Origin: a virus
Lineage: Duplodnaviria; Caudoviricetes
Direction: 5' to 3' (one strand)
Length of the DNA stretch: 59,029 nt
Virus record (IMG/VR): IMGVR_UViG_3300021963_000146
Span: 1 to 59,029 of that record
The notes below the pieces were generated by a model. That model was given only the letters and a program-made list of their open reading frames with translations, had not been told where the DNA came from and searched no databases. Each line of letters starts with the position of its first letter. Position 1 is the stretch's first letter. Shown here in pieces: positions 3 to 44,603 of this stretch. A program made the translations under genes and the position numbers.

Positions 3-134
3 ATTCTTAAATTTGTCCACCTATGTAAAAAACATAACATTGACATTCCTATCATCGAGTTTGGTGTAGACGATATTGTTCGTTCAGACATCGTTGCTAG
101 AATTGTTAGGATGCTTATGGAGGAGAAACTTTAA
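3..134 (+). CDS. C-terminal fragment of a PhoH-like protein (5' truncated)
   Basis: The frame from nt 3 reads ILKFVHLCKKHNIDIPIIEFGVDDIVRSDIVARIVRMLMEEKL*. The F..DDIVRS.IV..I pattern resembles the PhoH C-terminus. The TAA overlaps the portal ATG (TAATG). Confidence 0.6.
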   Translation: MLKFVHLCKKHNIDIPIIEFGVDDIVRSDIVARIVRMLMEEKL

Positions 135-1765
135 TGGCAAACCTAACAACGACACCTTCAAAGGCTAAGACAAAGAGCCTAGGTGATCCTAATGCTGCAT
201 ACGAGTCTATGCGTCCCTTATGGGAGCGAGCTAGAGCAGTATTAAACGGTCAAACACATGCACGAGCATATGATGATACGATTGACTTAGTAACATATAA
301 CAATTTGTTGCTCCCTTTCTCTCCTACAATGAGTCCTCAACAGTACAACTTCTATCGTGCTGAGGGTGAGTTGCCTGGTTTGACTGCACAGTACGCTAAA
401 GTACTTGTGGGTGGATTGCTACGTAAGCAAGCTAGCATGGAGATCCCAGACAATATGTTTCCTGAAGGAACTGAAGACTGGATCCGTAATTCTTTTGGCT
501 CTGATGGTACTTCATTACATGGCTTCTTAGATGCTGCTATTTGGGAAGAGCTTCAAAGCTCACGAGCATGGTGTCTAGTAGACTACCCTACAGTAGCTAA
601 TCCAGATGCTCTCACTATGGAAGAGGCTAAAGCCTTGTCACCATATGTGATGCTTATTCAGGCAGAGAACATTATTAATTGGCGTAGAGGTCAAGACCGT
701 AATACTAATAAACAAGTACTTACAAGTCTTTTATTCCGCTACTACATGGAAGACTACACTAAAAATGAATTCCATCCAGACTATGTAGATACAGTTACAC
801 ACTACTACCTTGATGAGTCAGGATTGTTAGTAGTAGACACATACACAAAAGATACTAATGAGAGCATTAACGTTATTAATGGTAACGTAACCTCTAAGTA
901 TCAAGTAGACAATGCTAATGCAGCATGGACAAAGACACGTACAGAAGTACCATTAATGAATGGTGAACGTATGAACTTTATTCCAGCATATCCATTAAAT
1001 GGTCAGATTGATCCTGTAGAACCTATTCTGCAGTCTTTAATTGATCGTGAGATTGCTTTGTATAATAAAATCAGCCGTCGTAATCACTTGCTTTATGGTG
1101 CTGCTACTTACACTCCAGTAGTCATGTCAGATATGACTGATGAGGAGTTTGATACTATTGTTTCAGCTGGCTTAGGCTCATGGATTAAGCTTCGTGCTGG
1201 AGACGATATTAAAGCACTAGATACACCTACAGGTGCATTAAAAGATATGGAGGCAAGTATTGCCGCTACTATCGAAGAGATGGCTCGTATGGGCATTCGT
1301 ATGCTTTCACCTGAGGGTTCTTCAGGAGAGTCTGGTGTTAGCTTAGAGATCCGTAATGCTGCTCAAACAGCACAACTCGGTATGCTCAATACTCGTATCT
1401 CAGAGACAATGAGACAGATTATTGCTGTAATGCTTAAGTGGAAATACAACGTAGATATTCTTCCAACTGATATTAATTTCACACTCAGTGCTGACTTTAA
1501 TCCTACACCAGTAGGCGCAGACTGGATGAGGCTCGTTACAGAGTGGTACCAACAAGGTATTATTCCACGTTCAACATTTATATCTATTGCTAAGTTCAAT
1601 GACGTATTACCTTCAGAGTACAACGATGAAGATGGCGTAGCAGAAATCCAGAGTGATCCGCTTGTAGACACAAAAGCTATGAGCATCGATTCTTCTATCT
1701 CTGATACTGACAATTTACGTCCTGACAACAATAGAGACGACAATAACGATAACCAAGCCGTATAA
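134..1765 (+). CDS. Portal protein (DUF4055-like siphophage portal)
   Basis: 543 aa with a GGAGG RBS. Motifs AENIINWR and ESGVSLEIR, an acidic C-tail, and position ahead of the MuF, scaffold and capsid genes. Confidence 0.85.
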   Translation: MANLTTTPSKAKTKSLGDPNAAYESMRPLWERARAVLNGQTHARAYDDTIDLVTYNNLLLPFSPTMSPQQYNFYRAEGELPGLTAQYAKVLVGGLLRKQASMEIPDNMFPEGTEDWIRNSFGSDGTSLHGFLDAAIWEELQSSRAWCLVDYPTVANPDALTMEEAKALSPYVMLIQAENIINWRRGQDRNTNKQVLTSLLFRYYMEDYTKNEFHPDYVDTVTHYYLDESGLLVVDTYTKDTNESINVINGNVTSKYQVDNANAAWTKTRTEVPLMNGERMNFIPAYPLNGQIDPVEPILQSLIDREIALYNKISRRNHLLYGAATYTPVVMSDMTDEEFDTIVSAGLGSWIKLRAGDDIKALDTPTGALKDMEASIAATIEEMARMGIRMLSPEGSSGESGVSLEIRNAAQTAQLGMLNTRISETMRQIIAVMLKWKYNVDILPTDINFTLSADFNPTPVGADWMRLVTEWYQQGIIPRSTFISIAKFNDVLPSEYNDEDGVAEIQSDPLVDTKAMSIDSSISDTDNLRPDNNRDDNNDNQAV

Positions 1766-1811: not shown

Positions 1812-4800
1812 ATGCCCACACCAATTAATACTGATCTCTATGATCGTATTATTCAGCACTTAGCTGATACAAGGCTATATGAATTAGAGACATCAACGAA
1901 TGTTTCAAGAGGTATCCGTAGGCATCAAAAGAGGCTTAGGGATATCCTAAAATCAAATATTAAAGCAGACGTTAAACCAGAGATAACAAGGGCTACTCGT
2001 GAATTACACATGATTGTGGATAATTCAGTTACTGACTATGCAGGAGCCGCAGTAAACTTTCATACTAATAACTTAGATAAGAGTACTGGGTCTTTCTTTA
2101 GAGTTCAACGACCAAAGGCTAGTGATGCTATTCCAAATTTAATTGGACCTAACATTACTGCATCTAAAACTCTTAGACAACACTTTGATGCTATTGGCAG
2201 TGGAGAGTTAGCTAGGATAGATGGAAAAGTAAAGTCTGGTTTAGCTGATGGAAAGTCAACTAATCAAATTCTAGATGAAGTCATTCGTACTACTGCACTT
2301 ACTGAAGTACAGGCTAAAGTTCTAGTAAGAACCGCTATTACAAATACACAGTCCACTGCAATGAATATTGTAATGAACCGTAATAACGAAATTCTTGCTG
2401 GATACCGCTTTACTGCTGTGTTAGACAATCGTACATCACCTATTTGTGCGCACCATGATGGTGAAATCTATAAGATTGATGATCTAAGGTTTCGTCCACC
2501 ATTGCATTGGAATTGCCGTAGCTCAATGGTTCCTATTCTAAAGAATAAAGAACAACTACTAAAGTCTTTAGAGGAAACTCCAGACAGTAGACTTAAGGCT
2601 AACAAGCTTAAAGAGGCTAATCCCATTGCTCTTGATGGTGGTGCTCCTCCAGTAGAGACTTACAGTATTTGGCTTAAACGTCAACCTATGGCTGTTCAAG
2701 TTAAACACCTTGGTAGTGAAGAAAAGGCTGGATTGCTACAAAAGGGTGCTTTAGATGTTAAAGCATTTACTACTACAAAAGGTAATCAGCTTAGTATTGC
2801 GGCATTAAGGAAACTTGATAACGCTAGAACACTATGGTTTCCTACTAGACAGACTGTTGTTAGTAAAGCTGAGGAAAACTTATTCCAGCTAAACGTAGCC
2901 AGACCAAATGAATTGTTACGAAATACAGAGGCTCAAAGGCAACTTAGAGAAATGTATATTGCTGACTCAGATAATGTGGCTCAGGCTATCTCATTAACAG
3001 ACTATCGTGGTACTACACTTGCAGGAAAAAGATCTGTACGTGTTCGATCTAACAATGAGTTTGATGAACGTAATAACAGCTTTGACCCCTTTACAGGAGA
3101 GCAGAGTTCTACGTTATTATATGATCCTGACTACATTACATTACAAGAGCGACTTGATTTTGTTAAGAACTCAAAGGTTCTCTCTCAAGATCAAAAGATA
3201 TGGATTAGAGACTTTGTAGAAAGCTTAGATGAGTCAGTCTCTGTTAATCAACAGACTGCTGTAGCTGAGAACTTGCGTGTTGTATTTGAACGATACAATA
3301 ACGATAAGCAACCTTGGGTTAACTTCATGAATGTTGTTCGTGGAGAAATGCAATACTCTGTAGTCAATACTAGTCGTATTCTTGATCGTAGATCTAGGGC
3401 TAGGTCGCAATTGTTTGACAATTATGGCGTTGCTGGAGAGCCAGCTAAGGTTCAGATCTTTGGTAAATACTATTCATTTGATGAGATAGTTAACAAGACA
3501 TTAGAGAATCAACGATATACAGATGCTTGGTCAGAGAGACATGGAAGGCCGCTAGCTAGGAAGATATTGTATACAGGTAGAACTCCTCTATACACTTGGT
3601 TTAAAGGACCTCTAACAAGAGACTCAAAATCATTTAGTAAGAAGTTAGAGACATTTGTAAGAGAAGAAATTCCTGGTGGTGCTTTATGGCTAGACAGAAA
3701 TAAACCTAAAGAGGGTTTAATAGAAAAATATATTAGAGAGAAGAGAGAAGATCTTCGGAAAATTCTAGATCTTGAGTTTCTTTATCGTGGTAATAAACAA
3801 AGCTATACACAACAATTTATTGAGTCTAGGACTAACGATAAATTTGTTATTGATTCTTTGTCAAGAGTGTTATCAGTAGTGGCAGATGGAAAATCTACTG
3901 ACTATGATACACTAGCTATTAACATTGGTAAAGAATTAAGAAGTAACTGGAAGTATCCAGAATTTCCTTTCTTTAAATCAACATTAAAGGACTATCACTC
4001 AGATGGTTCAGAGATTCTTACTGCACTGAAAGATTCAGGCTACATTCGTGTAGTTAAACGTGGTAAGACCAGACGTTCAGTTGTTGACCTTGAAACAGGT
4101 CGTGCAAGTGGACCTTGGAGAGATACAATTAGTCGTGAGGTTCAAATCCTAGACAAGGATATGCTTGATCTTCAAAGAACTAATAGAGCATTGATTGTAA
4201 GTCAACGAATTGGTATTAACAACAATAGAGACAAACTCTATGTTAGACCAGGCGAGAAAACTTATTTTGATGCTAGAGGTAAGAATACAGGAATTACTGT
4301 TATTACTCGTAGGGCTAATGCTAACTACGATAAACTATTAATTGATAAAGATTTTGCTGATATGCTTAATCACACTATGTCAGTTCAATATGAAGTTGAC
4401 AATGAGTTTGCTGGATTCATGGAAGATGTTGTACGCTTTAGAGATCCCCGTGGGAACGTAAAGAAGTATGATGACTTAAATGACTTTAGAAAACTTATCT
4501 TGACTCGTGGAGATCAAGGATACAGTTTGATTCAGACAGTAAAGTATCATAGGGATACAGGTAAACCATTTAGTGTAGTTGCTAATATCGATGGTCGTGG
4601 ACGTGTCTACTACCAAGGATTCTTAACACCCACAGGTGGTGAAGTTGTTCGTCCATTCTTAAATACCGCTAAGGCAGAGGTTGCTACACCTGAGATTGTT
4701 CAGGAGTTAATGATTCAAACTGGTTCTATGTTAGGTCCAGCAACAGAGGCATTAACACAAGCAGGTCGAATGGAAATCTTTATGAGGAATCAGAAGGATG

Positions 4801-6233
4801 TACTAAGCTTAGGTAGACTCATGAGAGAAACTACACAGCGTGACAGACGTATTAGGGACTTCTTAGAACACCCTATTGTTCGTTCGCAAGAGGCTGAAGA
4901 GATTCCAAAGATTGCTAGATTAGCTATTGAGTATGCTCGGATATACGATCATGTCAATGGTGACTTTACTAACTTGAAAAAGTTATCAACATATAAAACA
5001 AAATTGATGATTGAGAATGATGCTTCATCCTCAGGTGCTCAGATCATTGGATTGAGTACAGGAGATAGAAGTATTTCAATCAACTCGAATGTGTTACCTA
5101 CACTACAGAAGAATCGATTGTATGACTTAGTTGCTATGGATACAGTGTCTGATCCAGAGTTCCAAAAGATACAAGGATTAAGAGAAGCTAATATTCAGTG
5201 GACAGACTTACAGAAGGCTGCTAAAGCACAGAATATGGTGTCATTCTATGGTGCTGGTAAAGCAACACAGGCGGCTAATATTGAGGCTAAATTTGCTTCA
5301 GTGTTAGAGACAAAAGGATATACTGTTGTTACTCGTGAAGAACTTCGTGGAGTAACTAATATTATAGATGCAAAGATTAAAGACGCAGATAGGCTAGGAG
5401 CCGATAATGTCGTGTTTGGTCTGAAACAATTAAAACGTGAGTTGAATGAGGTAGTTGAAGGTGAAACCCCTGTGGGGCAAGAACTTTTAGCTCATGCTCG
5501 TGATTCTCACCCAGACGTAGAAGCGTTTGTCGATAAGTTAATGAATGCTCGTAAGGGACTAATTGGTCCTCAAGACTTTAAAGCTGTATCTGAGATCATG
5601 TCTCAGAAACTAGCTGAACGAGCACCAGTAACACAAAAATTCGTACAATTCTGGAAAGTAGCTGCTAAAGCTTACGTTGATGAAACTCAGAAGGTCGATG
5701 TACCTTGGGTAACATTTGATGGTAAGACTTTATACCAGAGATACAGACCTAAAATCCAAACTAGCATTGAGTTCTATGACAAAGAGGCTGGTAGGATGGT
5801 CCGTAACATTTACGAAGATCGAGCAGAAGATGCTTCACTTCTAGGAAAATCAAGCTTGATGAGAGCTGGTATTGGCATGGGGGTTAATGGTAACCACATG
5901 AATGATGCCTCTATTGTTAGAAGATTCCATTTATGGGGTCGTAAAAACGGTATTGAAACCGCTACGATTCATGATGCTTTCTTCACAAACATCGGACTTG
6001 CAGCTAAGTCAAAGGTAGCCCTTAGAGAAATTTATGCGGATGCCCTTGAAGGTGATACAATAGAAAAAACTTTACTTGCTCTCAGAGAAGAAGGGTTGTC
6101 GAAAGCAACCTATAATTCTTTAAGACAAAAGGCTATTGAGGATGGCTTAATAAATCCTCGAAACAAAATTACGAGAAAAGATATACTAGCTCCTATTCCG
6201 AAGGGAATGGATTGGTATGGCATTGGACCGTAA
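1812..6233 (+). CDS. MuF (SPP1 gp7-like) head morphogenesis domain fused to a T7-family single-subunit RNA polymerase; putative virion RNAP
   Basis: N-terminus: AKVLVRT...FTAVLDNRTSPICAHHDG...PPLHWNCRS (MuF signature). C-terminus: DGRGR (aa 927), motif A ENDASSSGAQ (D1070), motif B KAQNMVSFYG (K1138/Y1146), NGNHMND, and motif C TIHDAF (H1387/D1388). One uninterrupted ORF with an AAGGAG RBS. Confidence 0.92.
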   Translation: MPTPINTDLYDRIIQHLADTRLYELETSTNVSRGIRRHQKRLRDILKSNIKADVKPEITRATRELHMIVDNSVTDYAGAAVNFHTNNLDKSTGSFFRVQRPKASDAIPNLIGPNITASKTLRQHFDAIGSGELARIDGKVKSGLADGKSTNQILDEVIRTTALTEVQAKVLVRTAITNTQSTAMNIVMNRNNEILAGYRFTAVLDNRTSPICAHHDGEIYKIDDLRFRPPLHWNCRSSMVPILKNKEQLLKSLEETPDSRLKANKLKEANPIALDGGAPPVETYSIWLKRQPMAVQVKHLGSEEKAGLLQKGALDVKAFTTTKGNQLSIAALRKLDNARTLWFPTRQTVVSKAEENLFQLNVARPNELLRNTEAQRQLREMYIADSDNVAQAISLTDYRGTTLAGKRSVRVRSNNEFDERNNSFDPFTGEQSSTLLYDPDYITLQERLDFVKNSKVLSQDQKIWIRDFVESLDESVSVNQQTAVAENLRVVFERYNNDKQPWVNFMNVVRGEMQYSVVNTSRILDRRSRARSQLFDNYGVAGEPAKVQIFGKYYSFDEIVNKTLENQRYTDAWSERHGRPLARKILYTGRTPLYTWFKGPLTRDSKSFSKKLETFVREEIPGGALWLDRNKPKEGLIEKYIREKREDLRKILDLEFLYRGNKQSYTQQFIESRTNDKFVIDSLSRVLSVVADGKSTDYDTLAINIGKELRSNWKYPEFPFFKSTLKDYHSDGSEILTALKDSGYIRVVKRGKTRRSVVDLETGRASGPWRDTISREVQILDKDMLDLQRTNRALIVSQRIGINNNRDKLYVRPGEKTYFDARGKNTGITVITRRANANYDKLLIDKDFADMLNHTMSVQYEVDNEFAGFMEDVVRFRDPRGNVKKYDDLNDFRKLILTRGDQGYSLIQTVKYHRDTGKPFSVVANIDGRGRVYYQGFLTPTGGEVVRPFLNTAKAEVATPEIVQELMIQTGSMLGPATEALTQAGRMEIFMRNQKDVLSLGRLMRETTQRDRRIRDFLEHPIVRSQEAEEIPKIARLAIEYARIYDHVNGDFTNLKKLSTYKTKLMIENDASSSGAQIIGLSTGDRSISINSNVLPTLQKNRLYDLVAMDTVSDPEFQKIQGLREANIQWTDLQKAAKAQNMVSFYGAGKATQAANIEAKFASVLETKGYTVVTREELRGVTNIIDAKIKDADRLGADNVVFGLKQLKRELNEVVEGETPVGQELLAHARDSHPDVEAFVDKLMNARKGLIGPQDFKAVSEIMSQKLAERAPVTQKFVQFWKVAAKAYVDETQKVDVPWVTFDGKTLYQRYRPKIQTSIEFYDKEAGRMVRNIYEDRAEDASLLGKSSLMRAGIGMGVNGNHMNDASIVRRFHLWGRKNGIETATIHDAFFTNIGLAAKSKVALREIYADALEGDTIEKTLLALREEGLSKATYNSLRQKAIEDGLINPRNKITRKDILAPIPKGMDWYGIGP

Positions 6234-6299: not shown

Positions 6300-6995
6300 A
6301 TGAAAGTAGATAAGTTCGGAAACAAAGAGTTCCTCGATGATGGCAACACACCCAACCCAGAGTTTAAAGCTGATGAGGTTGATAATGGTGGTGGAGGTGC
6401 TAACAATAAAGATACAGAAGACATGATCAATCGTATGGTTGAAGAGCGTCTCTCTAAAATCAAACTAAGTTTAGATAAAGCTTACCAAGAGCGAGACAAT
6501 GCTGTTAAAGAGCGTGTCCGACTGGAAGACGAAGCTAAACAACGTAAGATGAAATCTTTGGAGGACGAAGGTAAGCATAAAGAAGTTGCTGAGATGAAGC
6601 TCGCAGAACTCACTGAAAAGCTTGCGTTAGCCGAAGGCAAAGTAACTGAACTCACTCGAGATGGTGCGGTTCGTAATGCATTAACTGGTCTTGATTTCCG
6701 TAATGACCGATCTGGCCAAATGGCCTATCGTGATATTATCGATCAACTCATCCAAGATCCAGAGACTGGTGCATGGATTCACAAATCTGGTGTATCAATC
6801 AAGGATTTTGTAGGACAATATGTAAAGAATGAAGATAATTCTTTCCTATTTAAACCTAAATCTAATTCAGGGGGTGGTAGTAACAATATGAACGGTACTC
6901 CCAAACTCGATCCCAACAAGAAGATTACTGACATGACTACTGAAGAAGTGCTTGCACTTGCTGCAGGAGGCAAACTAGGTAACTTCACCCTTTAA
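6300..6995 (+). CDS. Capsid scaffolding protein
   Basis: Charged coiled-coil protein with FLFKPKSNSGGGS near the C-terminus, directly before the capsid gene. Confidence 0.75.
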   Translation: MKVDKFGNKEFLDDGNTPNPEFKADEVDNGGGGANNKDTEDMINRMVEERLSKIKLSLDKAYQERDNAVKERVRLEDEAKQRKMKSLEDEGKHKEVAEMKLAELTEKLALAEGKVTELTRDGAVRNALTGLDFRNDRSGQMAYRDIIDQLIQDPETGAWIHKSGVSIKDFVGQYVKNEDNSFLFKPKSNSGGGSNNMNGTPKLDPNKKITDMTTEEVLALAAGGKLGNFTL

Positions 6996-7015
6996 AATCA
7001 TAGGAGATTTTTTAA

Positions 7016-8110
7016 ATGATTAATCATACAATGTTCCAAAACGTAGCTATTGCTATTTCTGCATACGCTGATGAAATGTACACAAACGCCAAGAAGCTTA
7101 ACAGCACTGGTATTGTTGGTACAGATGCCCGTATCGACCCAACAGGCGAGAGCTTCATTGGTCAAATGCGCTGGTACAAACCTTTGGCAGCTAACATTAA
7201 CGTTGCTAGCTTGTCTGTTTCTAACGCTGGTAATTACACTGACGTGTCTACCGAAATTGCTGACTACATTAAAACAGTCCGTACCTTTGGTTCACAACAA
7301 GTTAACCTCCAGCAAATCGTCTCTCAACAAGATGGTCTGTCTAAGATTGCCCGTGACTTCTCTGAAGTTCGTAGCCAAGACGAATCTGACGCTATTGTGT
7401 CTACACTCAAAGGTGTAGCCGCTTACGAAGTTTCTCGTGGCGCTGGTATTGTTGACTACACCACAGACGCTGATGGCGCTGGTGTTGGTAACTTCGTTGA
7501 CATTAACGCTGCTGGTACCTTTGGTGCTGCTGCTGCTACGTCTGCATCTGATCAGCGTAAACTGTTTGATGCTACAGCTATTGGTGCTGCCCGTGGTCAA
7601 CGCTTGTTCCAAGCTCTTGGCATGGCATTCAAGGACTATGAGCCTGACTTCATGTACATGATCACTTCTCCAGAAGTTTTGGCTGAACTCCGTGCCGCTA
7701 ACTTGGTTGACGTGACAACTGTTACCGATGGTAACTTGACATTCCAAACCGTGTTCGGTGGTAAATTCCGTTTGATCTTGAGCCGTGTTGCTCAAGGCGA
7801 CTTGTCTGCTTCTGCTAACGTGAATGATCGTTCTACAAAGACTACATTCATCTGCAAACCAGGTGCTATCAGCTTTACAAACATTGCTGTTCCTACACCT
7901 GTTGAAGTTGACCGTGATGCGGCTTCTTACACTGGTGGTGGCTCTACCTCTATTTGGTATCGTTATGGCTTCGTGGCTCACCCAATGGGCTATGACTGGG
8001 CTGGCGCTACTAACGCATTCGCTACTAATGCCAACTTTGCAACCGCTGGTTCATGGGCACGTAAGATGAGTGCATTGAATTTGGGTATTCTGCCTATTCT
8101 CCACGCTTAA
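7016..8110 (+). CDS. Major capsid protein
   Basis: 364 aa after the scaffold with an AGGAG RBS and highly biased codon usage. The C-terminal PVEVDRDA...GGGST...HPMGYDW pattern is typical of siphophage coat proteins. Confidence 0.85.
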   Translation: MINHTMFQNVAIAISAYADEMYTNAKKLNSTGIVGTDARIDPTGESFIGQMRWYKPLAANINVASLSVSNAGNYTDVSTEIADYIKTVRTFGSQQVNLQQIVSQQDGLSKIARDFSEVRSQDESDAIVSTLKGVAAYEVSRGAGIVDYTTDADGAGVGNFVDINAAGTFGAAAATSASDQRKLFDATAIGAARGQRLFQALGMAFKDYEPDFMYMITSPEVLAELRAANLVDVTTVTDGNLTFQTVFGGKFRLILSRVAQGDLSASANVNDRSTKTTFICKPGAISFTNIAVPTPVEVDRDAASYTGGGSTSIWYRYGFVAHPMGYDWAGATNAFATNANFATAGSWARKMSALNLGILPILHA

Positions 8111-8127
8111 TCCATTAGGAGGAACTG

Positions 8128-8625
8128 ATGGCACTAGTCCTAGGTACAAACACATATGTAACTATGGTCGAGGCTGACGCATACTTTGATACTCGCATTG
8201 ATGCGGGTGCATGGTTAAATGCAGATGACGATGACCAAGAGTCAGCATTAGTGACTGCAACTCTTTTACTTGATGAAAATCAATTTATTGGTGTTGCTGT
8301 CAGTTCCACACAGAGTCTTGCGTGGCCTCGTAAAGGGGCTTCAACTTTTGATCCCCGATTGGGACAATCGATTACTTACGGTGAATCTGAAATTCCAAAA
8401 AGAATGAAGAGTGCTGTGCTAGAAATGGCATATCATTTATTGTCTAATGAAAACTTGTTAGATAACAAATCTCAAAACTTTGAAGAAATTTCAATCGGTA
8501 CTATTACATTGAAAGATAGTAATAACGACACTACTAGAACACCTATGGTGCCTAGTCTTGTTAAGAAGTACTTAAAACCACTATTAATTAATCAGGGTTC
8601 ATCCCAGTGGTGGAGGGCAAATTAA
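8128..8625 (+). CDS. Head-tail adaptor (DnaT-like phage family)
   Basis: NTYVTMVEADAYF and QSLAWPR motifs; first gene after the capsid. Confidence 0.75.
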   Translation: MALVLGTNTYVTMVEADAYFDTRIDAGAWLNADDDDQESALVTATLLLDENQFIGVAVSSTQSLAWPRKGASTFDPRLGQSITYGESEIPKRMKSAVLEMAYHLLSNENLLDNKSQNFEEISIGTITLKDSNNDTTRTPMVPSLVKKYLKPLLINQGSSQWWRAN

Positions 8626-9941: not shown

Positions 9942-9961
9942 AGGGGTCTCGTACCCCTTTT
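9942..9961 (+). terminator. Probable intrinsic terminator after the tail tube gene
   Basis: AGGGGT-CTCGT-ACCCCT followed by a short T run. Confidence 0.55.
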
Positions 9962-9983
9962 ACCAGGGGACGCTAAAGAGAGA
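9959..9983 (+). promoter_or_regulatory. Putative phage RNAP promoter, class B, copy 1
   Basis: TTTACCAGGGGACGCTAAAGAGAGA is identical to 26254-26278, is intergenic, and resembles the SP6 promoter core (AGGTGACACTATAG). Confidence 0.75.
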
Positions 9984-11297: not shown

Positions 11298-14200
11298 ATG
11301 TCAGTAGAAATTAAAGTCACGGCAGACACGAGAAAGGCATCTGAAGACATAGATAGACTACGGGGTCTACTAAAGAAGGTACAAGATGAAGCTACTAAGG
11401 GTAGCAAAAAGACAAAGATTATTGATGTTAATGAAGACCAATTAAAGATTCTTCAGTTAAATAAAACAATTCAAGATCTAAATGCTAAGTTGCAAAAGAT
11501 GCCTAAACATAAGGTATTTGATAGTCGTTCATTAAATGACGCTATCTCGCAGACTCAGCAAATTAACAATAATGTTAATAGAATAAATACCAGCGCAGTT
11601 AAGCTGGGTAACACGTTCAAATCTGTTTTTGCATTAGGTGCAGTAACTCTATTCGGTAATTCTATATTACGTACAGCACAAACATTTGAAGGTTTAAGAA
11701 CAAGACTTAATGTAGCCACAGGCTCATTAAACAAAGCTCAACGAGCATTCTCTGATATCCAAACATTTGCAGCGCAAACTAAGTTTAGTGTAGATGCACT
11801 CACTGATTCATATGCTCGATTAGCAAATACAGGTAGTGATTTACTTAGCACAAATGGTGATATCTTAAACGGTATTGAAGCTATTGCTAACGCTGTTACA
11901 GCTGTTGGTGGTGGTGATTACGAGATTCAACGAGTTGCTGAAGCATTCGCTAGGATGGCGGCTGAGGGTCGTGTAACTTATGAACGATTAGAGCCTCTTA
12001 CAACTGCAGGTATCAGCCTTCAAAAGGTTGCAGCAGCAGCTGGTAAGTCATGGAATCAGTGGTCTGATAAAATGGCTCAAGGTAATCTTACCTTTGAAGA
12101 AGTATACGCTGCATTCAATAAACTTGCAATGTCTACGCAAGGCTTTGGTGGAATAGCTCGTAAGCAAACAAATAGTTTGTCTGGTGCATTCTCTAACTTG
12201 GGTGATGCAATCAAAGGCTTCCAAGACTCAGTTATTAATAGCACTGGTATTAAAGATGTTATTATTGCAGTTACAAACTCAATAACTTCAAGTATTAATA
12301 CTCTAACTAGATTTGTTAGGAATGACCTTACTGTAGCGATTACACAATTTAAACGATTTGTATTAGAACTACAAATAGGATTCTTAAAGTCTAGAAATGT
12401 AATTCAAGATTTTGTTGCTACAGTAACTAAGTTTGATTTTACTAGTTGGATTCCTGACTTTTCTAAATATCGTTTAGATCTAGGTGACTATTTACCTGAT
12501 CTAGCAAAAGTTCAAAAGACAGTTTACAACTTCGGTAAGTTTGTAAAGAAAGTATTCTATGATGTATGGGATGCCGTTGTTGGTAACTCATATTGGCCTG
12601 ATACAATTAAAGGTATTGCTGATTGGTCAAATCAGTTGTATGCTTTAGCTGCCCCTGGTGTTAATCGCTTTAGTAATTATATGTCAGATGTGTTCCTCGA
12701 TATTCGAGATGCATTTGATATGTGGAAAGAAAAGATTAATATTGAAGTTCAAGTAATCAAGGATGTAGGTGCCCTGGCATATATCCAAAACTTCTTTAGC
12801 TCAATAGTTAAAACAATAAAGGATGTAGCTAGCTCAGGTATAGATTCTTTTGCTAATGCAATTGATAGAGCATTAGTAAAAATGGGCAATGCAATTAAAA
12901 GTTTTGCAGAATACGCTAAAACAGTAGATGCTACTATCTTCTTTGACATGATCGAAGTTATTAGTAGATTCATGAAGATGCTAGCGCCTAATTTAGGTGA
13001 GCTTACAGGGCTCTCAGCCAAACTACAAAAGGCATTCGCAAAATTTGATATTCCTAATTTTGAAATTAAATTAGGTAAATTTAGAATTGATGTATCTGAA
13101 ACAATACGTAAATTCTCTTTAGACTACATTAAAGAAAATTTTATTGAAATCATGGAGGATGCTGTTGCAGTATTCCGAAATGGTATTGCAGATACAAAAG
13201 TGTTTCAATCTATTTTCACTTCTATTGGTGAAACTTTCGGTAGGATTATAACTAGGGCTTTAACGGATGACTTAAAGACTACATTTGCTCAAGATATCCA
13301 AGATATTGTTATTGCAGCATTCTTAGTTGCATTTAATTCTGGCTTCAGACAAATTGCTCTTGCTACATTAGTATTCAAGATTGCTTTTGGTGATGATGCA
13401 AGCTTTACAGATGGTTTACTTAAACTTAAGAAAATCATAACTGACTTTGGTAACTCTATTTTACAAGGCTTAGGTCTTGAAGGTTTCGCACCGAGCTCTG
13501 GTGGTTTTATTGTAGGATTGTTATTTGGTACAGCCGCATTAGCAATTGCATCAGGTAAAATGACATCACTCATTGGTGTTGTTGCAAAAGAATTAATTAA
13601 TTTCTTTATTCTCTCCAAGATATTTGGTGGACCTCAGCAACAGCAAGCAGCTCCAGCAGCACAATCAGCTGGTGGATTCTTAGGCAAAGCATTTAAAGTT
13701 GGCTTTACTGCCTTTGCAGGTATTGCTGCATTATTTGTTGGTTTGCATATTGGTGATGCCATTGCAGAATCACTCGATGTAGAAAACACATTCTATCATC
13801 TTGGTATTACTGCTGGCGCTGTTTTCCTTTCTGGATGGGCTATTACTGCTGGTGCAGGTGTATTCGGTACATGGATATCTACTGTTGTTGGTCCTGCAAT
13901 TATTTTAGGACTTAAACGATTGGCTATTGCAGCTGTATTCTCAGCTTCAATGTTCCCAGCTGGTGCCGCTATTATTTCTGCTATTACTGGCATTGTTGCT
14001 ACTATAGCTGCATTCTTTACTTTACCTGTTCTATTAGGTGCATTAGGTATTGCTGCAGGTAGTTCATTAATCTATTACGCATTGTTTGGTGACAAAGATG
14101 CTAAAGGTATTGAGGGTAAAGTAACTAGATTCTCATTATGGTTGAAAGACTCAATCAAGAGCATGATTGTTGGAACATACGATCTATTTGTAGATATCTT

Positions 14201-17200
14201 TAAAGGTATTGGAAATATTCTTGTTTCAACATTTGACTCGCTACGTAATACTGTTAAAGACCTAAAGAACTTCCTATTTGAAGGTTCATTTAAACAACCA
14301 ACACAACAAGTTAATCCTCAACAGCGTAGGGCTAATGGTGGTAGAATTAGTGGTCCAGGTACAGGCAGATCAGACTCTATTTTGGCTAGACTATCTAATG
14401 GTGAGTTTGTTGTTAATGCTAAAGCAACAGCACAAAACTTACCTCTGTTAAGAAGTATTAACAGTGGCATGCCAGCATTCCAGAATGGTGGACTAGTAGA
14501 TTATTCTTTCATTCGACAAATGGAAAATGGTACTGATAGTACACCTAAGACAAAAGGATATATACCTACTAATAAGAAAGGTATGCCAATTGATTCTTCT
14601 GGTGTAACTATTGCCTCTGGATTAGACTTAGGTTCTAAAGATGTTGCATGGTTAAAAGACCTTGGATTACCAGATAATCTGATTGATAGATTCAAACCGT
14701 ACTTAGGTAAGAAAAGAGTTGCTGCTCAAATCGCATTAAAGAGAAAACCACTTTATATTACTAGTGCTGAGGCTGACTTAATTGATTCTAAAGTAATTCC
14801 TTTGTTTGCAAAGGGTGCTGCAAGAGAATATACAGGTCTTTCTGCTAGGGATAGCAAGATATCATTTGAGCAATTACCACAAGAGGTAAGAACTGCTCTT
14901 ACATCTGCAAGGTATCAGTATGGCTCCTTAACTGCAAGGGGCTGGCTAGCTGAAGCTACTCATTTAGCATCACTTGGTCATTATGATAAAGCTGCAGAGA
15001 AATTTGAAACCTCTGGTGATAAATATGCTTCACGTAGAAAAGCAGAAGCTAATCTAATTAAGACAGCAGCGATTAAGAGCAAGCCTCCTATTCTAGCGGC
15101 TGTACCAGAATCAAGAAGAAGTACATTAGACGATATTCTAGACTTGTTTAGATCTAGTGATTTGAATGTTGCACCTTCTGTAGCAGAAGCAAATGAAAAA
15201 GCGCTTGAAGATGCTATCAATCAAAACAATGATGATCCTAAAACTAAGAAACGTATTGCAAGAACACTAATAGGTAGATTGCTTGGATTGCCATCTTATG
15301 CTGATGGTACTGAAGATCCTATTAATTTTATTAAGACTCCTACAATTGAAGATGCTGGTTTAAATATCGGTAAATTCAATGGTGCATCCTTTATTAAGAA
15401 TGAAACATTCTCTAAACAATTAACAACCGATGAAAAGTTGTTGTTGGGTTCTAAAGAGATGCGTCGTGAATTAACACGACATCTAACAGAAAATATCAAA
15501 AATAATATTAGTACTTATTTCCCTACGGATAATGATTCTGTACTTACTACTTCTGATGCTGTAACTAAAGGTGCTTTAGAGGGTGTTAACCTTGATTTAT
15601 TTGGTGGTAAATTAAAAGGTCGTATTAAGAAAGACGGATTCAAAGTTTTATTTACTAAGCAATTTGCTAATGGTGGTAAAATTAGTGGTCCTGGAAATGG
15701 TCGTTCAGACTCAATTCTTGCTAGACTTTCAAATGGTGAATTTGTAGTTAATGCTAAAGCAACAGCTCAAAATTTACCTTTGTTACAAAGCATTAATAAG
15801 GGGATGCCTGGATTTGCTAATGGTACTCAAAGTCCAATTGGAAATGCAGTATCTCAGATTAATCCTGCACAATCTAGACAAAAGTTAAAAGTTAAGGGTA
15901 AAGAATTCAATATTGATCTTGAAGAGTTTTTTAATACTCTTCTTAAATTAAAAGTTGAAAATAAAGATCTTGCCGAAAATTCAGAAGAATTAGCAATTTC
16001 ATTTAAAAAGTCTTTAGACACAATTGATAATTGGACAATTAGACTTGCTCTTAATACTGTTAGTATAAAAGAACTATCTGAAAATATTAAACCACTTTCT
16101 GGTGATTTAGGTAAGTTAGCTACTGATGTTAAGACTGCAAGACTTCAAGGTAAGAATCAACAATTCAAAACAAATGGTGCTGGAGATATTGATCCGGAAA
16201 CATTTGCGAGAATTAAAAATCTTTTAGTGCAAGGTCTTGGTGCTGACCCAAGTAAAAATGCGTTGTTTGATCAAGAACTCAAACTCAATTTATTAAAGAA
16301 TCTTGATGTTCTTTCTACATTAAATAGTCTTCAAGCCCAAATAACAGCTGCATTAGCTTCTACTGAAAATACTACACCTGATGGTAAGAAATTTGTAGAT
16401 AACTTTATTGCTGGAGTTACCGACAGAATTCGTGAAAGACTTAATGAGATAGCTCCTAGTGAATCTGGAACAAGAAGCCCTCGTGGATTTATTCAACCAG
16501 CATCAGCAGAAGCAGGACGAAATGCATCCCAAGCTTTTGTTGGAGACTTTAAATCAGGATTAGCAGAAACATTAAAGGGAACAAAGACAGGGAAAGAATT
16601 TGGTGAATTTGTAGTAAATTCATTTACAAGCAAAGTTGTAGATTCTTTTGCTAGTCGTTTAACCGATACTGTGTTTAGTGGAGATTTCTTTGCTAAGATT
16701 TTTGGTGGCACTGCACAAATAGGTGAAGGCACAGGTGGACTATTAAACTTCCTGTTACCTAGTTCTGCACCAGCACAACAAGATTTAAATAAACCTGATA
16801 ATTTATTAGATGTACTCAGCGTTAAACCAAAAGCACCAATACCAGTTGTTGTTGTCCCAGGTACTGATAGTGTATTTAAATCAGTCTCAGGTGGTTCTAG
16901 TGGTGGTGGTTTGTTTGGCGGTCTTGGTGATACCTTTGGTAAAATAAAGGATGGCTTCGGAGATTTCTTTAGTAAGGGTTTCTCTGGTATTAGTTCTTTA
17001 TTTAGCTTCTTGCCTGGATTTGCTTCAGGTGGTGTAATCCCTGGTCAAATGGGAAGTGCAACTCCAGTACTTGCGCATGCAGGCGAAATCATTCTAAATG
17101 AATCTCAGCAATCTAGAGTAGCAGCTGCTATGAGTAATTCAAATCAACAAGTAGTTAATGTAAACATTACAGGTGATATTAGTCGCCAAACAAAATCGGA

Positions 17201-17270
17201 AATTTATAGAATGCTCCCATCTATTGCTGAGGGTGTAAACTCACACAATAGAGAGAAAGGTTTAAGGTAA
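11298..17270 (+). CDS. Tape measure protein with an internal pesticin-like muramidase domain
   Basis: 1990 aa with an N-terminal tape-measure domain (FARMAAEGRVTYERL), a hydrophobic mid-region, duplicated GG.ISGPG.GRSDSILARLSNGEFVVNA modules, and a GYIP...SGVTIASGLDLG motif. Confidence 0.88.
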   Translation: MSVEIKVTADTRKASEDIDRLRGLLKKVQDEATKGSKKTKIIDVNEDQLKILQLNKTIQDLNAKLQKMPKHKVFDSRSLNDAISQTQQINNNVNRINTSAVKLGNTFKSVFALGAVTLFGNSILRTAQTFEGLRTRLNVATGSLNKAQRAFSDIQTFAAQTKFSVDALTDSYARLANTGSDLLSTNGDILNGIEAIANAVTAVGGGDYEIQRVAEAFARMAAEGRVTYERLEPLTTAGISLQKVAAAAGKSWNQWSDKMAQGNLTFEEVYAAFNKLAMSTQGFGGIARKQTNSLSGAFSNLGDAIKGFQDSVINSTGIKDVIIAVTNSITSSINTLTRFVRNDLTVAITQFKRFVLELQIGFLKSRNVIQDFVATVTKFDFTSWIPDFSKYRLDLGDYLPDLAKVQKTVYNFGKFVKKVFYDVWDAVVGNSYWPDTIKGIADWSNQLYALAAPGVNRFSNYMSDVFLDIRDAFDMWKEKINIEVQVIKDVGALAYIQNFFSSIVKTIKDVASSGIDSFANAIDRALVKMGNAIKSFAEYAKTVDATIFFDMIEVISRFMKMLAPNLGELTGLSAKLQKAFAKFDIPNFEIKLGKFRIDVSETIRKFSLDYIKENFIEIMEDAVAVFRNGIADTKVFQSIFTSIGETFGRIITRALTDDLKTTFAQDIQDIVIAAFLVAFNSGFRQIALATLVFKIAFGDDASFTDGLLKLKKIITDFGNSILQGLGLEGFAPSSGGFIVGLLFGTAALAIASGKMTSLIGVVAKELINFFILSKIFGGPQQQQAAPAAQSAGGFLGKAFKVGFTAFAGIAALFVGLHIGDAIAESLDVENTFYHLGITAGAVFLSGWAITAGAGVFGTWISTVVGPAIILGLKRLAIAAVFSASMFPAGAAIISAITGIVATIAAFFTLPVLLGALGIAAGSSLIYYALFGDKDAKGIEGKVTRFSLWLKDSIKSMIVGTYDLFVDIFKGIGNILVSTFDSLRNTVKDLKNFLFEGSFKQPTQQVNPQQRRANGGRISGPGTGRSDSILARLSNGEFVVNAKATAQNLPLLRSINSGMPAFQNGGLVDYSFIRQMENGTDSTPKTKGYIPTNKKGMPIDSSGVTIASGLDLGSKDVAWLKDLGLPDNLIDRFKPYLGKKRVAAQIALKRKPLYITSAEADLIDSKVIPLFAKGAAREYTGLSARDSKISFEQLPQEVRTALTSARYQYGSLTARGWLAEATHLASLGHYDKAAEKFETSGDKYASRRKAEANLIKTAAIKSKPPILAAVPESRRSTLDDILDLFRSSDLNVAPSVAEANEKALEDAINQNNDDPKTKKRIARTLIGRLLGLPSYADGTEDPINFIKTPTIEDAGLNIGKFNGASFIKNETFSKQLTTDEKLLLGSKEMRRELTRHLTENIKNNISTYFPTDNDSVLTTSDAVTKGALEGVNLDLFGGKLKGRIKKDGFKVLFTKQFANGGKISGPGNGRSDSILARLSNGEFVVNAKATAQNLPLLQSINKGMPGFANGTQSPIGNAVSQINPAQSRQKLKVKGKEFNIDLEEFFNTLLKLKVENKDLAENSEELAISFKKSLDTIDNWTIRLALNTVSIKELSENIKPLSGDLGKLATDVKTARLQGKNQQFKTNGAGDIDPETFARIKNLLVQGLGADPSKNALFDQELKLNLLKNLDVLSTLNSLQAQITAALASTENTTPDGKKFVDNFIAGVTDRIRERLNEIAPSESGTRSPRGFIQPASAEAGRNASQAFVGDFKSGLAETLKGTKTGKEFGEFVVNSFTSKVVDSFASRLTDTVFSGDFFAKIFGGTAQIGEGTGGLLNFLLPSSAPAQQDLNKPDNLLDVLSVKPKAPIPVVVVPGTDSVFKSVSGGSSGGGLFGGLGDTFGKIKDGFGDFFSKGFSGISSLFSFLPGFASGGVIPGQMGSATPVLAHAGEIILNESQQSRVAAAMSNSNQQVVNVNITGDISRQTKSEIYRMLPSIAEGVNSHNREKGLR

Positions 17271-26253: not shown

Positions 26254-26278
26254 TTTACCAGGGGACGCTAAAGAGAGA
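26254..26278 (+). promoter_or_regulatory. Putative phage RNAP promoter, class B, copy 2
   Basis: Exact 25-nt match to 9959-9983, with continued partial similarity downstream; intergenic. Confidence 0.75.
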
Positions 26279-27240: not shown

Positions 27241-30200
27241 ATGGCAACCCTAGGTTTAACCACCCAAGAGAACATTATTAATGTACAGACAGTAGACTAT
27301 GTTCTTTCACTGTCTCGTACAGGTGGTCAAGGTGCACAAGGTTATAGTGCATACGACATTGCAGTCCAGAATGGCTATACTGGCACTGCTCAACAATTTG
27401 CTACTGAGTTAACAACTTTAACTCTTAAGGTTACTCAAGCTGCTGCTAGTGCAACTCAAGCCGCAAACTCAGCTACTGCCGCAAGTGGATCTGCTACTAA
27501 CTCTTTAAACAGTGCTAATGCTGCTGCTTTAAGTGCCACAACAGCAACTACACAAGCAACTGCCGCATCTCAGAGTGCGGTTAACTCTGCCGCAAGTGCT
27601 GCTCAATCTAGCACCTTTGCTGACAACTCAGAGGACAGTGCTACAGACTCTCAACTTGCCGCTGCTGATGCTGCAGCTAGTGAAGATGCCGCTGCTAGCT
27701 CCGAAGCTAATGCTTTGTTATATAAGAATGCTGCTCAAGCCTCTGCTACAACTGCTAGTAATGCCGCTACATCGGCTACTAACTCAGCAACTTCAGCAAC
27801 CAACTCAGCTACTGCAGCTGCATTAAGCGCTACTGCTTCGGCTAATAGTGCCTCTGATGCTGATTTGTCTGAGGCTAACGCTTTAGCTAGTGCAACAACA
27901 GCAACTCAACAAGCTGTTATTTCAACAACACAAGCTGGCATAGCAACTACAAAAGCCACTGAAGCTTCTGGTTCTGCTACTACTGCTAGCAATGCAGCTA
28001 CAACTGCAACCACTCAAGCTGGTATTGCCACAACTAAAGCAAGTGAAGCATCTACTTCAGCTACTACGGCAACCACTCAAGCTGGTATTGCAACTACTCA
28101 GGCTACTACGGCAACTACTCAAGCGGGTATTGCTACAACACAAGCTACTACGGCAACTACTCAAGCGGGTATTGCTACGACTAAAGCTGCTGAGGCCGCT
28201 ATTAGTGCTGCTAATGCTGCAGCTGCTAAGTCTTCTGTAGACGCTAGTCTTGCTTCTTTTCGTAGAACTTATTTAGGTGAGTTACCTAGTGATCCTACCT
28301 TAGATGGTAACGGTGATCCAGTAATTATTGGTGCTGAATACTTTAATAGTACTGCACAAAAGCTTAAGGTTTATACCTCTACTGGTTGGCAATTCTATGA
28401 TGCAACTGCTCAAACAGCTTCTCAGAATGCTGCATTGAGTGCTTCTCAAGCTGCTGGTAGTGCTGCTACTGCTAATACATATGCAGTTACAGCAATTAAT
28501 AAAGCTGCTGAGGCTGATACATCTGCTCAGAATGCCGCTATAAGTGCTACTAGTGCTTTGGCAAGTAAAAATTCTGCAGCTACTTCAGAATTGAATGCTA
28601 GTACTTCAGCAAACTATGCATTGAACTATAAGAATGCCGCTGAAGCAAGCGCTACATTAGCTTCTTCAAAGGCTTCTGAAGCTGCTACTAGTGCAACTAA
28701 TGCCGCTACCTCAGCAACTACTGCTGGAACAGGTGCAACAACAGCTACGACTCAAGCAGGTATTGCGACAACCCAAGCGGGAATCGCCACTACACAGGCT
28801 GGCATTGCTACAACTAAAGCAGGTGAAGCTGCAACAAGCGCTACTAACGCTTTAGCATCTGAAACTAGTGCATCTACAAGTGCCGCTACTGCAACTACTC
28901 AAGCTACTAATGCTGGTAACAGTGCAACATCAGCTAGCACATCTGCTACTAATGCGGCCACTAGTGCTACTAACGCTTTAGCATCTGAGACAAGTGCTTC
29001 AACAAGCGCTTCAACTGCTACAACTCAAGCTGGTATTGCAACAACTCAAGCAACTAGTGCTAGTGGATCTGCTACAACTGCAACAACACAGGCAGGAATA
29101 GCGACTACTCAAGCTGGAATTGCAACGAATAAAGCAGGTGAGGCATCTACAAGTGCAACTAATGCTGCAACATCTGCAACGACTGCTACTACACAGGCTA
29201 CTAATGCGGCCTCTAGTGCAACAGCCGCAGGTACTTCTGCAACTAACGCTGCAACAAGCGCTACAAATGCTTTGGCTTCTGAGACTGCATCTTCTGCTAA
29301 TGCTGCAACATCTACAACTCAGGCGGGTATTGCAACTACTCAGGCAGGACTTGCTTCAGCCTCTGCAACAACTGCAACTACTCAAGCTGGCATAGCAACA
29401 ACTGCTGCAACTACTGCAACAACACAGGCTGGTTTGGCATCTACAAGTGCTACTAATGCAGCTACATCTGAGACTAATGCAGCCTCAAGTGCCTCTGCAG
29501 CACAAGCCGCTAGAGATCAAGCCCTAGCTGCTTTTGATAATTTTGATGATAAGTATTTAGGTGAGAAAGCTTCTGATCCTTCATTAGACAATGATGGTAA
29601 TGCTCTTGTAACTGGTGCATTGTATTACAATTCCACAATTCCTGGAATGAAAGTTTACAATGGTACTGCATGGGTTGCCGCATATATCTCTGGTGCTGGT
29701 TATGTGCTTGCATCAAACAATCTTTCAGATTTAACTAATGCAGCAACTGCAAGAACAAACTTAGGTTTAGGTACTGCAGCTACTACTGCTAGTACTGCAT
29801 ATGCTACTGCTGCTCAAGGTACTCTTGCAGATAACGCTGTAAGCAACCTTACATCAACAGATGGTAGTGTTAGTATTACAACAACAGGAACTGTTAAGGA
29901 TCTTAGTGTTGGTATTGCAGGTAGTACAGGTGTACTGATTGCACAAGTTCGTAATGAAACTGGAGCACCTCTTACTAAGGGTACTTTGGTTTATGTTAGC
30001 GGTGCATCAAGCAACAAAGCTCTTGTTTCAAAGGCTATAGCAACAGGAGATACTACTTCTGCACAAACATTTGGTATGGTGCGGGAAGATATTCCTCACA
30101 ATCAAAATGGTTATGTAGTTGTTAGCGGATCATTAACTGGTTTAAACACCCTTGCATACCCTAATGGAACTCAACTATATTTGAGTAGTACTGTTGCTGG

Positions 30201-32871: not shown

Positions 32872-32880
32872 GGACATAAC

Positions 32881-33975: not shown

Positions 33976-33984
33976 GGAAACAAC

Positions 33985-34965: not shown

Positions 34966-34983
34966 CAAAAAGGAAAATAAAAT

Positions 34984-35514: not shown

Positions 35515-35523
35515 GGATTTTAA

Positions 35524-35793: not shown

Positions 35794-35802
35794 GGAGTAA
35801 GC

Positions 35803-36177: not shown

Positions 36178-36188
36178 GGAGGCACAAT

Positions 36189-37088: not shown

Positions 37089-37097
37089 GGAGTAGAT

Positions 37098-40385: not shown

Positions 40386-40388
40386 CTA

Positions 40389-41763: not shown

Positions 41764-41774
41764 GGAAATTAGAT

Positions 41775-42134: not shown

Positions 42135-42135
42135 T

Positions 42136-44573: not shown

Positions 44574-44603
44574 GGTCACCCTGTAAAAAGGGTGGCCTTT
44601 TTT
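44574..44603 (+). terminator. Intrinsic terminator ending the structural operon
   Basis: GGTCACCCT-GTAAAA-AGGGTGGCC followed by TTTTTT. Confidence 0.85.

Follow-up and report, generated by a model that had tools for sequence, protein, structure and literature searches.

The gene at positions 1812–6233 of IMG/VR virus record IMGVR_UViG_3300021963_000146 raises the question of whether MuF, a portal-binding head protein known for carrying toxins, can carry a full T7-type RNA polymerase (RNAP) instead, and whether that polymerase would start transcription when the phage genome enters a cell. The window analyzed here is the whole record (59,029 bases, linear, with a completeness estimate of 85%), and its + strand holds all genes of note. 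An earlier reading made from the sequence alone (the sequence-only reading) had proposed that this open reading frame (ORF) encodes a MuF-tagged virion RNAP. The proposal was supported in part: the protein is the sole MuF of the window, is encoded by a single ORF past the portal gene, contains a complete polymerase and is accompanied by a second RNAP and an early promoter-like element, while its packaging, ejection and activity, together with the assignment of that element to it, are what we infer. At a probability of roughly 55%, MuF carries the T7-type RNAP into the head, the ejected enzyme reads the early element, and a canonical RNAP of the same phage then takes over.

The ORF lies between the portal and scaffold genes, as had been claimed, and encodes 1473 residues; scaffold, major head and adaptor genes follow within 6300–8625. 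Searches with Pfam profiles placed Phage_Mu_F (PF04233) at residues 136–239 (nt 2217–2528; E 7.7e-13, 49.6 bits against a cut-off of 29.6), where a MuF signature had been reported at about nt 2300–2540, and RNA_pol (PF00940) at residues 1054–1425 (E 4.1e-6, 26.3 bits against a cut-off of 22; 28.2 bits by six-frame search), so that both domains exceeded the Pfam curated cut-offs. PHROGs matches were to head morphogenesis family phrog_241 (residues 52–338, 3e-53) and RNA polymerase family phrog_414 (residues 918–1160, 8.5e-22). The protein is a member of the MuF family by profile and gene position, and of the T7-type RNAP family by profile, motif and fold. It is the only PF04233 match in the window, in G001 (a complete relative of 76,946 bp with direct terminal repeats, 100% complete) and in the cultured phage DSS3_VP1.

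For structure prediction, residues 330–1473 were aligned with 29 relatives and folded with AlphaFold2, giving a mean predicted local distance difference test (pLDDT) of 79.9 and a predicted template modeling score of 0.71, with a disordered stretch at residues 330–356. In Foldseek searches of the PDB with this model, T7 RNAP was the best match (E about 1e-18, ~1000 aligned columns, template modeling score normalized to the target 0.46–0.61), followed by the yeast and human mitochondrial RNAPs (about 1e-16). Among the predicted viral structures of BFVD, the DSS3 homolog came first (7.6e-99), T7-like phage RNAPs matched at 1e-19 to 1e-15, and N4-type virion RNAPs matched only at 1e-10 to 1e-13. 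Identity was about 14% to T7 RNAP over the structural alignment and 21% to the phage's own canonical RNAP. The protein is accordingly modeled as MuF to about residue 340 and, past a linker, a full T7-type enzyme that has its N-terminal domain, rather than a palm fragment. The sequence-only reading had located the catalytic motifs about 700 residues past MuF; the motifs do lie there, and it had underestimated the polymerase, whose T7 fold (~1000 columns) starts around residue 360.

The active site was mapped by HMMER searches against PDB sequences, in which residues 1294–1414 aligned with T7 RNAP 722–838, placing H1387/D1388 on H811/D812, and IDGRGRVY of the fusion protein stood opposite T7 DWRGRVY. 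K1138 and Y1146 are read as the equivalents of T7 K631 and Y639 from the identical K-x7-YG spacing rather than from direct alignment. All catalytic residues named beforehand (DxRGR, D1070, K1138/Y1146, H1387/D1388) were present, and D927, R929, G930, R931, D1070, K1138, Y1146, G1147, H1387 and D1388 did not vary in any of 33 full-length sequences, whose identity goes down to 37%. In a more distant set of 15 sequences, reaching 22% identity, D1070, K1135, K1138, Y1146, G1147, R931 and D1388 were invariant in all.

These alignments bear on the possibility that the polymerase part is an inactive module, exapted for a structural or DNA-binding role. The low Pfam score of 26.3 bits would fit such a module, as would the glutamine at the position of T7 R627, which had been pointed out before and was found here as Gln1134, four residues before K1138; Gln1134 is variable across the family, and the adjoining K1135 is a conserved basic residue (15/15). 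H1387 also varies in the most distant set. Speaking against inactivity, the motif A and motif C aspartates, the motif B lysine, tyrosine and glycine, and the DxRGR arginine are invariant to 22% identity, the whole T7 fold is predicted with confidence, and a group I intron splits the EBPR siphovirus 1 homolog exactly in motif B. Group I introns favor conserved sites of functional genes. We consider loss of activity very improbable, and the polymerase part is apparently a complete, active T7-type enzyme.

The fusion was searched for in several collections. In tblastn against 50,697 phage records, four records reached at least 80% coverage: two of DSS3_VP1 and one of DSS3_PM1 (48% identity each) and one of EBPR siphovirus 1 (31%). 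In a large protein collection, 447 protein clusters matched at E ≤ 1e-5; among the 120 matches listed, 95 had both Pfam domains, 19 had MuF only and 6 had RNA_pol only (817–1257 residues), so that PF04233 was found in 114, the other 6 being short. An exhaustive HMMER search with residues 330–1473 against 1.84 billion representatives returned only 141 matches at E ≤ 1e-3, and in the full-length ones the start of the query fell at about residue 325–360 of the target. N-terminal MuF was present in 6/6 divergent representatives (23–39% identity). On these comparisons the MuF-RNAP family is compact and stands clearly apart from ordinary T7-like RNAPs.

Relatives are encoded in 537 IMG/VR stretches, and the best 80 loci (at least 52% identity, so that the counts say nothing on the far edge of the family) were inspected. 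The gene was uncut in 63 of them, and all 63 ran in one frame from MuF to the polymerase C-terminus with none split; the sequence end cut the remaining 17, at the 5′ end in 15 and at the 3′ end in 2. A further 9 large contigs hold the same single-ORF MuF-RNAP. The one split case was EBPR siphovirus 1, where the break falls inside motif B, after KAQNMV, and the gene resumes directly past an HNH endonuclease gene (gp48). The Rfam group I intron model matched at the break (40.5 bits, E 1.6e-8; below the gathering score of 50), and the split therefore reads as an intron in the catalytic core, not as a separation of MuF from polymerase. The insert spans L002:9170-10030 (JF412302 about 28901-29761), and GenBank lists the exons as gp47 and gp49. 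Given the same ORF in two cultured phages, in the 63 uncut IMG/VR loci from many samples and in the 9 further contigs, we give practically no credence to an assembly chimera or frameshift artifact that joined two genes, a concern that the sequence-only reading had raised together with that of homologs being always split.

No paper describing a MuF-RNAP fusion was found in a literature search that covered neither subscription journals nor supplements, in line with the earlier remark that no characterized example was known. The DSS3_VP1 homolog, DSS3VP1_00028, is labeled "minor head protein-like protein" in GenBank, and relatives carry the JGI label "SPP1 gp7 family putative phage head morphogenesis protein". 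GenBank names only DSS3VP1_00056 (L089:6437-8635) "RNA polymerase", and DSS3_VP1 is thus recorded with one polymerase and encodes two.

Delivery through the head is suggested by the MuF part. In passages of PMC6316719, SPP1 gp7 binds the portal and is present in low copy number in the capsid, and virions free of gp7 are only about 25% infectious; C-terminal fusions of MuF are seen as effectors delivered with the DNA in passages of PMC5512222 and PMC5576092. In the phages studied here, the portal gene precedes the fusion gene in 49 of 80 related loci, the remaining loci being short of flank, and MuF residues C212, H232 and C235 are unchanged in 15/15 sequences down to 22% identity. A complex prediction of portal with MuF residues 1–345 scored 0.10 and 0.00 against a mark of 0.32, which counts neither for nor against binding. 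The location of the gene among late head genes would equally suit a polymerase of the late phase that works in the producing cell, with its presence in the head incidental and its activity not needed at entry. The canonical RNAP, however, already has matching promoters in the late region, and the fusion to the sole MuF is kept in 63/63 uncut relatives and 6/6 divergent ones, which is hard to explain if head targeting is irrelevant; we hold this reading to be improbable.

Some relatives carry more than the two domains. Loci L050 and L055 and proteins P0056, P0064, P0069, P0079 and P0080 (1584–1603 residues) have an insert of ~130 residues near residue 257, directly past the MuF core, in which Pfam finds no domain (P0079). 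P0129 (1821 residues), P0141 (1890 residues) and P0143 (2073 residues) contain 350–600 extra residues beside MuF and RNA_pol, without a Pfam domain there; these may be further cargo or domains.

The second, canonical RNAP accompanies the fusion in DSS3_VP1 and in 6 of 10 long relatives; the other 4, with the fusion only, are fragments (41–58% complete). Promoter candidates were obtained by mismatch-tolerant comparison of intergenic 16-mers, which yielded two motif classes; exact 12-mer repeats and long direct repeats in the window gave no promoters. Class 1, TACCAGGGGACGCTAAAG, matched 6 times when up to 3 mismatches were allowed, where 0.04 matches were expected, and 4 of these were intergenic and on the + strand (9961, 26256, 49441 and 49477). 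The copy past the canonical RNAP gene is kept in G001, G002 and G003, and no copy of the motif was found in G005, G008 and G010, which are more distant. In T7, the phi1.1A/B promoters are placed directly after the RNAP gene, and class 1 was assigned to the canonical RNAP because of this arrangement; by this analogy the canonical RNAP probably takes the middle/late role. Downstream of its gene and promoters, terminator-like hairpins with T runs at 49501–49528 and 50087–50106 may delimit short transcription units.

Class 2 is the early element, 26 nt of the form GTGAGAAAA-N7-ATCTATAATG with 19 specified bases. G001, G002, G003, G005, G008, G010 and DSS3_VP1 have it at the corresponding place, once or twice each. 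With up to 2 mismatches allowed, the window, G001 and DSS3_VP1 each had exactly 2 copies, those of DSS3_VP1 at MN602266 35795 and 36242. Every copy is on the coding strand, and a reversed-pattern control at the same tolerance found none. All 19 specified bases are identical between the window and DSS3_VP1, though the replication proteins are only 36–49% identical, GC content is 38.7% versus 47.7%, and none of the small ORFs tested are in common; the element is thus conserved more strongly than any of the proteins that these phages encode. Scanned for the exact pattern, IMG/VR returned 89 stretches, many with 2–4 tandem copies, where by our own rough estimate chance would give a few at most. 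Among element-bearing contigs of at least 34 kb, 9 of 15 encode MuF-RNAP. The other 6 have no MuF domain on the fragment, which is therefore taken to lack the head module, and all 6 have the canonical RNAP of the family. Of 80 element loci, 44 contain the canonical RNAP gene, which in all 44 is encoded on the strand of the element and downstream of it, at a median distance of 2.4 kb; in the remaining 36, the sequence continues for no more than 3.6 kb past the element. Downstream of most copies, a purine-rich stretch resembling a ribosome-binding site and a start codon come within about 30–60 nt. In the window, both copies lie within a longer direct repeat of ~65–70 nt (44607–44680 and 44877–44947) that flanks a 74-residue ORF (44698–44922), the second repeat copy overlapping the end of this ORF.

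The canonical RNAP cannot make itself: the early element precedes its gene, and its own promoters follow. The element must then be read by something that is there at time zero, either the host RNAP or a virion protein, and the MuF-fused polymerase would be the only other polymerase available at entry, if packaged; from this follows the model of delivery by MuF. Reading by the host RNAP would be served by the perfect TATAAT that the element contains, with the fused enzyme packaged through MuF for another role at entry, such as drawing in the genome, making primers for replication or reading another promoter class. T7 offers precedents: its early genes are read by the host RNAP, transcription drives the entry of its genome, and T7-type and mitochondrial RNAPs are able to prime replication. 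Strict conservation of the bases flanking TATAAT could in that case reflect a phage or host factor other than MuF-RNAP. On the other side, no TTGACA-like –35 hexamer was found at 17 ± 1 nt upstream of TATAAT (we read AAAAGT there), and sigma-70-like sites are not enriched in the region (30 found against 34.5 ± 5.3 expected). The 19 bases invariant across phages at 36–49% protein identity are more than a –10 box needs, and no third conserved promoter class, which the fused enzyme might have read instead, was seen in the intergenic 16-mer comparison.

A hairpin adjoining the element also argues against the host enzyme. It begins at the TG of TATAATG and would be whole in the RNA only if transcription starts at or before that TG. 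A sigma-70 start falls about 7 nt past the –10 hexamer and would therefore truncate the hairpin, and the geometry of T7-type enzymes allows a start at the TG. Perfect stems of at least 5 bp followed the element in 51 of 76 distinct copies (300 shuffles: mean 10.5, maximum 19) and stems of at least 6 bp in 42 (mean 3.0, maximum 8), figures in which the relatedness of the sequences makes the shuffles overstate independence. The variety of compensated stems (TGATAC/GTATCA, TGATATA/TATATCA, TGAACT/AGTTCA, TGATAAA/TTTATCA, TGATAGA/TCTATCA and others) carries more weight than these counts. Early promoters of hairpin form, read by the virion enzyme, are a mark of N4-type systems; the covarying hairpin that adjoins the early element here may act either in the DNA or at the 5′ end of the RNA. 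Weighing both sides, we regard transcription of the element by the host RNAP as unlikely, though it is the alternative to be taken most seriously.

Under the model of delivery by MuF, the fusion gene, which lies in the head block, would presumably be expressed late, and the MuF part would bind the portal and bring a few copies of the protein into the procapsid. At infection the fusion protein would exit the head with the DNA or just ahead of it, and the fused polymerase would start transcription at GTGAGAAAA-N7-ATCTATAATG, of which two copies lie just past the terminator of the late block. The early products would be the small early proteins and the canonical 724-residue T7-like RNAP, which would then read its own T7-like promoters, TACCAGGGGACGCTAAAG, directly past its gene and in the late region.

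Several observations weigh against this model, in addition to the substitutions at Gln1134 and H1387, the TATAAT and the relatedness of the hairpin sequences described above. The hairpin is weak in the clade of the window, with 5 bp at copy 1 and at most 4 bp at copy 2. Across 8 genomes, identity in the specificity loop of MuF-RNAP was 0.48–0.66 and in the core 0.59–0.63, so that the loop did not stand out by its conservation, and it behaved like that of the canonical RNAP. The comparison did not discriminate; the link between the fused enzyme and the element that it failed to give can also be set down in favor of the host RNAP. At the last position of the N7 spacer, the clade of the window has T and the other clade C, parallel to two variants of the loop; as a single event this was not counted as support. 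The partial record of EBPR siphovirus 1 has neither the early element (0 matches at up to 2 mismatches) nor a canonical RNAP. The main text of the DSS3_VP1 papers has no virion proteome and no mention of an RNA polymerase; supplementary gene tables could differ.

The comparison with phage N4 combines background on that phage with the abstract of PMC13492108 and passages of PMC5512222. Each of the two phages has a T7-fold single-subunit polymerase that is believed to travel in the virion and to serve early transcription, encodes another T7-like RNAP (RNAPII in N4) for the next class of genes, and has early promoters that stand in tandem, few in number, and are associated with a small hairpin. 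The N4 virion RNAP (vRNAP; gp50, Schitoviridae) differs in that it has about 3500 residues, with a central mini-vRNAP domain between N4-specific domains at both termini and no MuF, and comes from a short-tailed phage, whereas the fusion protein has 1473 residues, occupies the MuF slot and belongs to a phage with a tape-measure gene. It is also structurally nearer to T7 and mitochondrial RNAPs (E 1e-18) than to N4-type vRNAPs (1e-10 to 1e-13), and its PHROG N4-like match was marginal (4.8e-4, with no passing stretch). By size, architecture and closeness of fold, the fusion protein is not an N4-type vRNAP. By analogy, the system is best read as an N4-style cascade in which the virion RNAP hands over to another RNAP of the phage; it differs in its packaging module and in belonging to a long-tailed phage.

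With SPP1 gp7 and phage Mu F, the fusion protein shares an N-terminal PF04233 domain, a gene directly past the portal gene and a C-terminal extension that reads as cargo delivered with the DNA. The MuF cargoes described in passages of Jamet et al. (2017) and Iyer et al. (2017) are toxins or enzymes that modify the host (ART, RelA/SpoT, RNases, PRTase), and those systems are found mostly in temperate phages with immunity genes. Here, in contrast, the next gene is the scaffold gene, the cargo would be a transcription enzyme for the phage's own genome, and the phages have T7-type replication genes. The fusion protein is not a MuF polymorphic toxin, its C-terminal part being a polymerase, though no systematic search was aimed at integrase or repressor genes. 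The word "polymerase" occurs 0 times in PMC5576092, and the MuF-RNAP architecture does not appear in passages of PMC5512222.

Likeness to T7 consists in the fold, the catalytic motifs and a hairpin resembling the specificity loop, and in a partner canonical RNAP with T7-like promoters right past its gene; the differences are that T7 RNAP is not packaged in the virion and that the fused polymerase is only about 14% identical to it. The closest cultured systems are the Naomviridae roseophages DSS3_VP1 and DSS3_PM1, which have a syntenic head module with the full-length homolog (DSS3VP1_00028, 48% identity) and also share the second RNAP, the early element, T7-like replication genes and a dCMP/dCTP deaminase homolog. 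The window phage differs as a distant relative known from metagenomes only.

DSS3_VP1 and DSS3_PM1 (Rihtman et al., 2021) replace thymidine by deoxyuridine (dU) in their DNA, according to passages of PMC8323127 and PMC12697855, and an HD-type dTMP phosphatase of the dU pathway has been characterized from DSS3_VP1 in passages of PMC12697855. The window encodes a homolog of the characterized DSS3_VP1 deaminase Dcd at the syntenic place (55222–55635; PF00383, 76 bits; 37% identity) and a nucleoside 2-deoxyribosyltransferase-like protein at 50837–51250; together these hint that the window phage may also modify its thymidine pool. A search for the dTMP phosphatase with PF01966 (HD-hydrolase) gave no match, not even in DSS3_VP1, and was thus uninformative. 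The dU phages PBS2 and AR9 bring or encode their own RNAPs, and we conjecture that a self-sufficient start of transcription on unusual DNA would be a plausible selective reason for the fusion. In its widest form, which we advance tentatively as falling short of even odds, a large, globally distributed family of long-tailed phages would carry a promoter-specific T7-type RNAP on MuF, and this enzyme would use the 26-bp promoter GTGAGAAAA-N7-ATCTATAATG on incoming, possibly uracil-containing DNA to make early mRNAs capped by a 5′ hairpin without the host RNAP.

To our knowledge, virion-carried RNAPs are known from few phage groups only, namely N4-like, crAss-like and jumbo phiKZ/AR9-like phages. 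Each of these groups changed views of early infection and of escape from host control. The family described here numbers hundreds, from viromes of marine, estuarine and freshwater origin. If the model is true, MuF would be a general protein-delivery tag, beyond toxins; the start of transcription would be explained in these phages, dU-substituted DNA being found in at least two of them; and a second, independently evolved system of virion single-subunit RNAP would stand beside that of N4. It would also provide a new compact polymerase/promoter pair, for which a concrete candidate promoter is given here; being small, self-contained and distinct from that of T7, such a pair could serve as a laboratory tool. 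The model is directly testable in DSS3_VP1 on Ruegeria pomeroyi DSS-3. The features of the window are collected in Table 1.

Table 1. Positions of the MuF-RNAP gene, its domains and motifs, and associated genes and promoter-like elements in the window
Feature	Positions	Strand	Basis or remark
Portal protein gene	134–1765	+	Directly upstream of fusion; phrog_145, 2e-58
MuF-RNAP fusion gene	1812–6233	+	1473 residues, one ORF without internal stop; full-length homologs exist
MuF / SPP1 gp7-like head-morphogenesis domain	1965–2825 (residues 52–338)	+	Pfam, PHROGs; C212, H232, C235 invariant
MuF-polymerase linker, low confidence	2799–2879 (residues 330–356)	+	pLDDT below 50
Complete T7-fold single-subunit RNAP, predicted	2889–6230 (about residues 360–1473)	+	AlphaFold2 model, Foldseek; conserved C-terminus DWYGIGP
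DxRGR motif, D927-G-R929-G930-R931	4590–4604	+	Aligns with T7 motif; invariant
Motif A catalytic Asp D1070 (T7 D537)	5019–5021	+	Mapped through the phage's own canonical RNAP; invariant
Motif B K1138...Y1146-G1147 (T7 K631/Y639/G640)	5223–5252	+	Invariant
Long beta-hairpin, residues 1314–1337, at position of T7 specificity loop (T7 739–770)	5751–5822	+	HMMER alignment, DSSP of model, sequences across 8 genomes
Motif C H1387-D1388 (T7 H811/D812)	5970–5975	+	HMMER alignment to T7
Scaffold gene	6300–6995	+	Downstream of fusion
Major head protein gene	7016–8110	+	Downstream of fusion
T7-like promoter motif TACCAGGGGACGCTAAAG	9961–9978	+	Intergenic gap, late region
T7-like promoter motif, identical copy of TACCAGGGGACGCTAAAG	26256–26273	+	Intergenic gap, late region
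Intrinsic-terminator-like hairpin and T run	44574–44597	+	Closes late (structural) block
Early promoter-like element, copy 1	44613–44638	+	Followed by 5-bp hairpin at about 44635–44651
Early promoter-like element, copy 2	44882–44907	+	Identical 26 nt
Small ORF cluster, putative early genes	44698–47258	+	No family match; leads into canonical RNAP gene
Second, canonical T7-like RNAP, 724 residues	47262–49436	+	PF00940 268 bits; T7 RNAP E 4e-61
Two T7-like promoter motifs	49441–49458, 49477–49494	+	Directly past canonical RNAP stop codon (49436)

Sequencing runs were compared with the window as contigs, which give no starts, strands or levels. Two marine DNA runs contained 0.85 and 0.80 of the sampled words, and four freshwater metatranscriptome runs contained 0.08–0.10. 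RNA-library contigs of relatives covered patches of 45.8–50.5 kb and left 43.3–45.7 kb uncovered, a lack of cover that proves nothing. In marine DNA run X1, word depth spiked at 44602–44868 and 49141–49674, rising about 50-fold at the early-element repeats, and contigs broke at the early elements. The spikes fit a repeat common to many co-occurring genomes and are not independent evidence. Further spikes in DNA-run depth at about 50.0–50.2 kb suggest another element common to co-occurring relatives.

At gathering thresholds, no Rfam family matched within the window. Two ORFs of 543 residues each (starting at 134 and 57114) were considered as a terminal overlap and rejected, there being no repeat and the second encoding a primase-helicase. 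A 1990-residue ORF at 11298–17270, whose position matches the tape-measure gene of DSS3_VP1, contains a 159-nt direct repeat (14331–14489 and 15666–15824; 81% identity). Eight ORFs within 31795–43023 match Pfam Gly_rich_2, seven of 294–364 residues and one of 1095 residues that also has SPRY and DUF7483; this run of paralogs is G+C-richer (to 48%) and strongly GC-skewed, and presumably encodes tail fiber or receptor-binding proteins.

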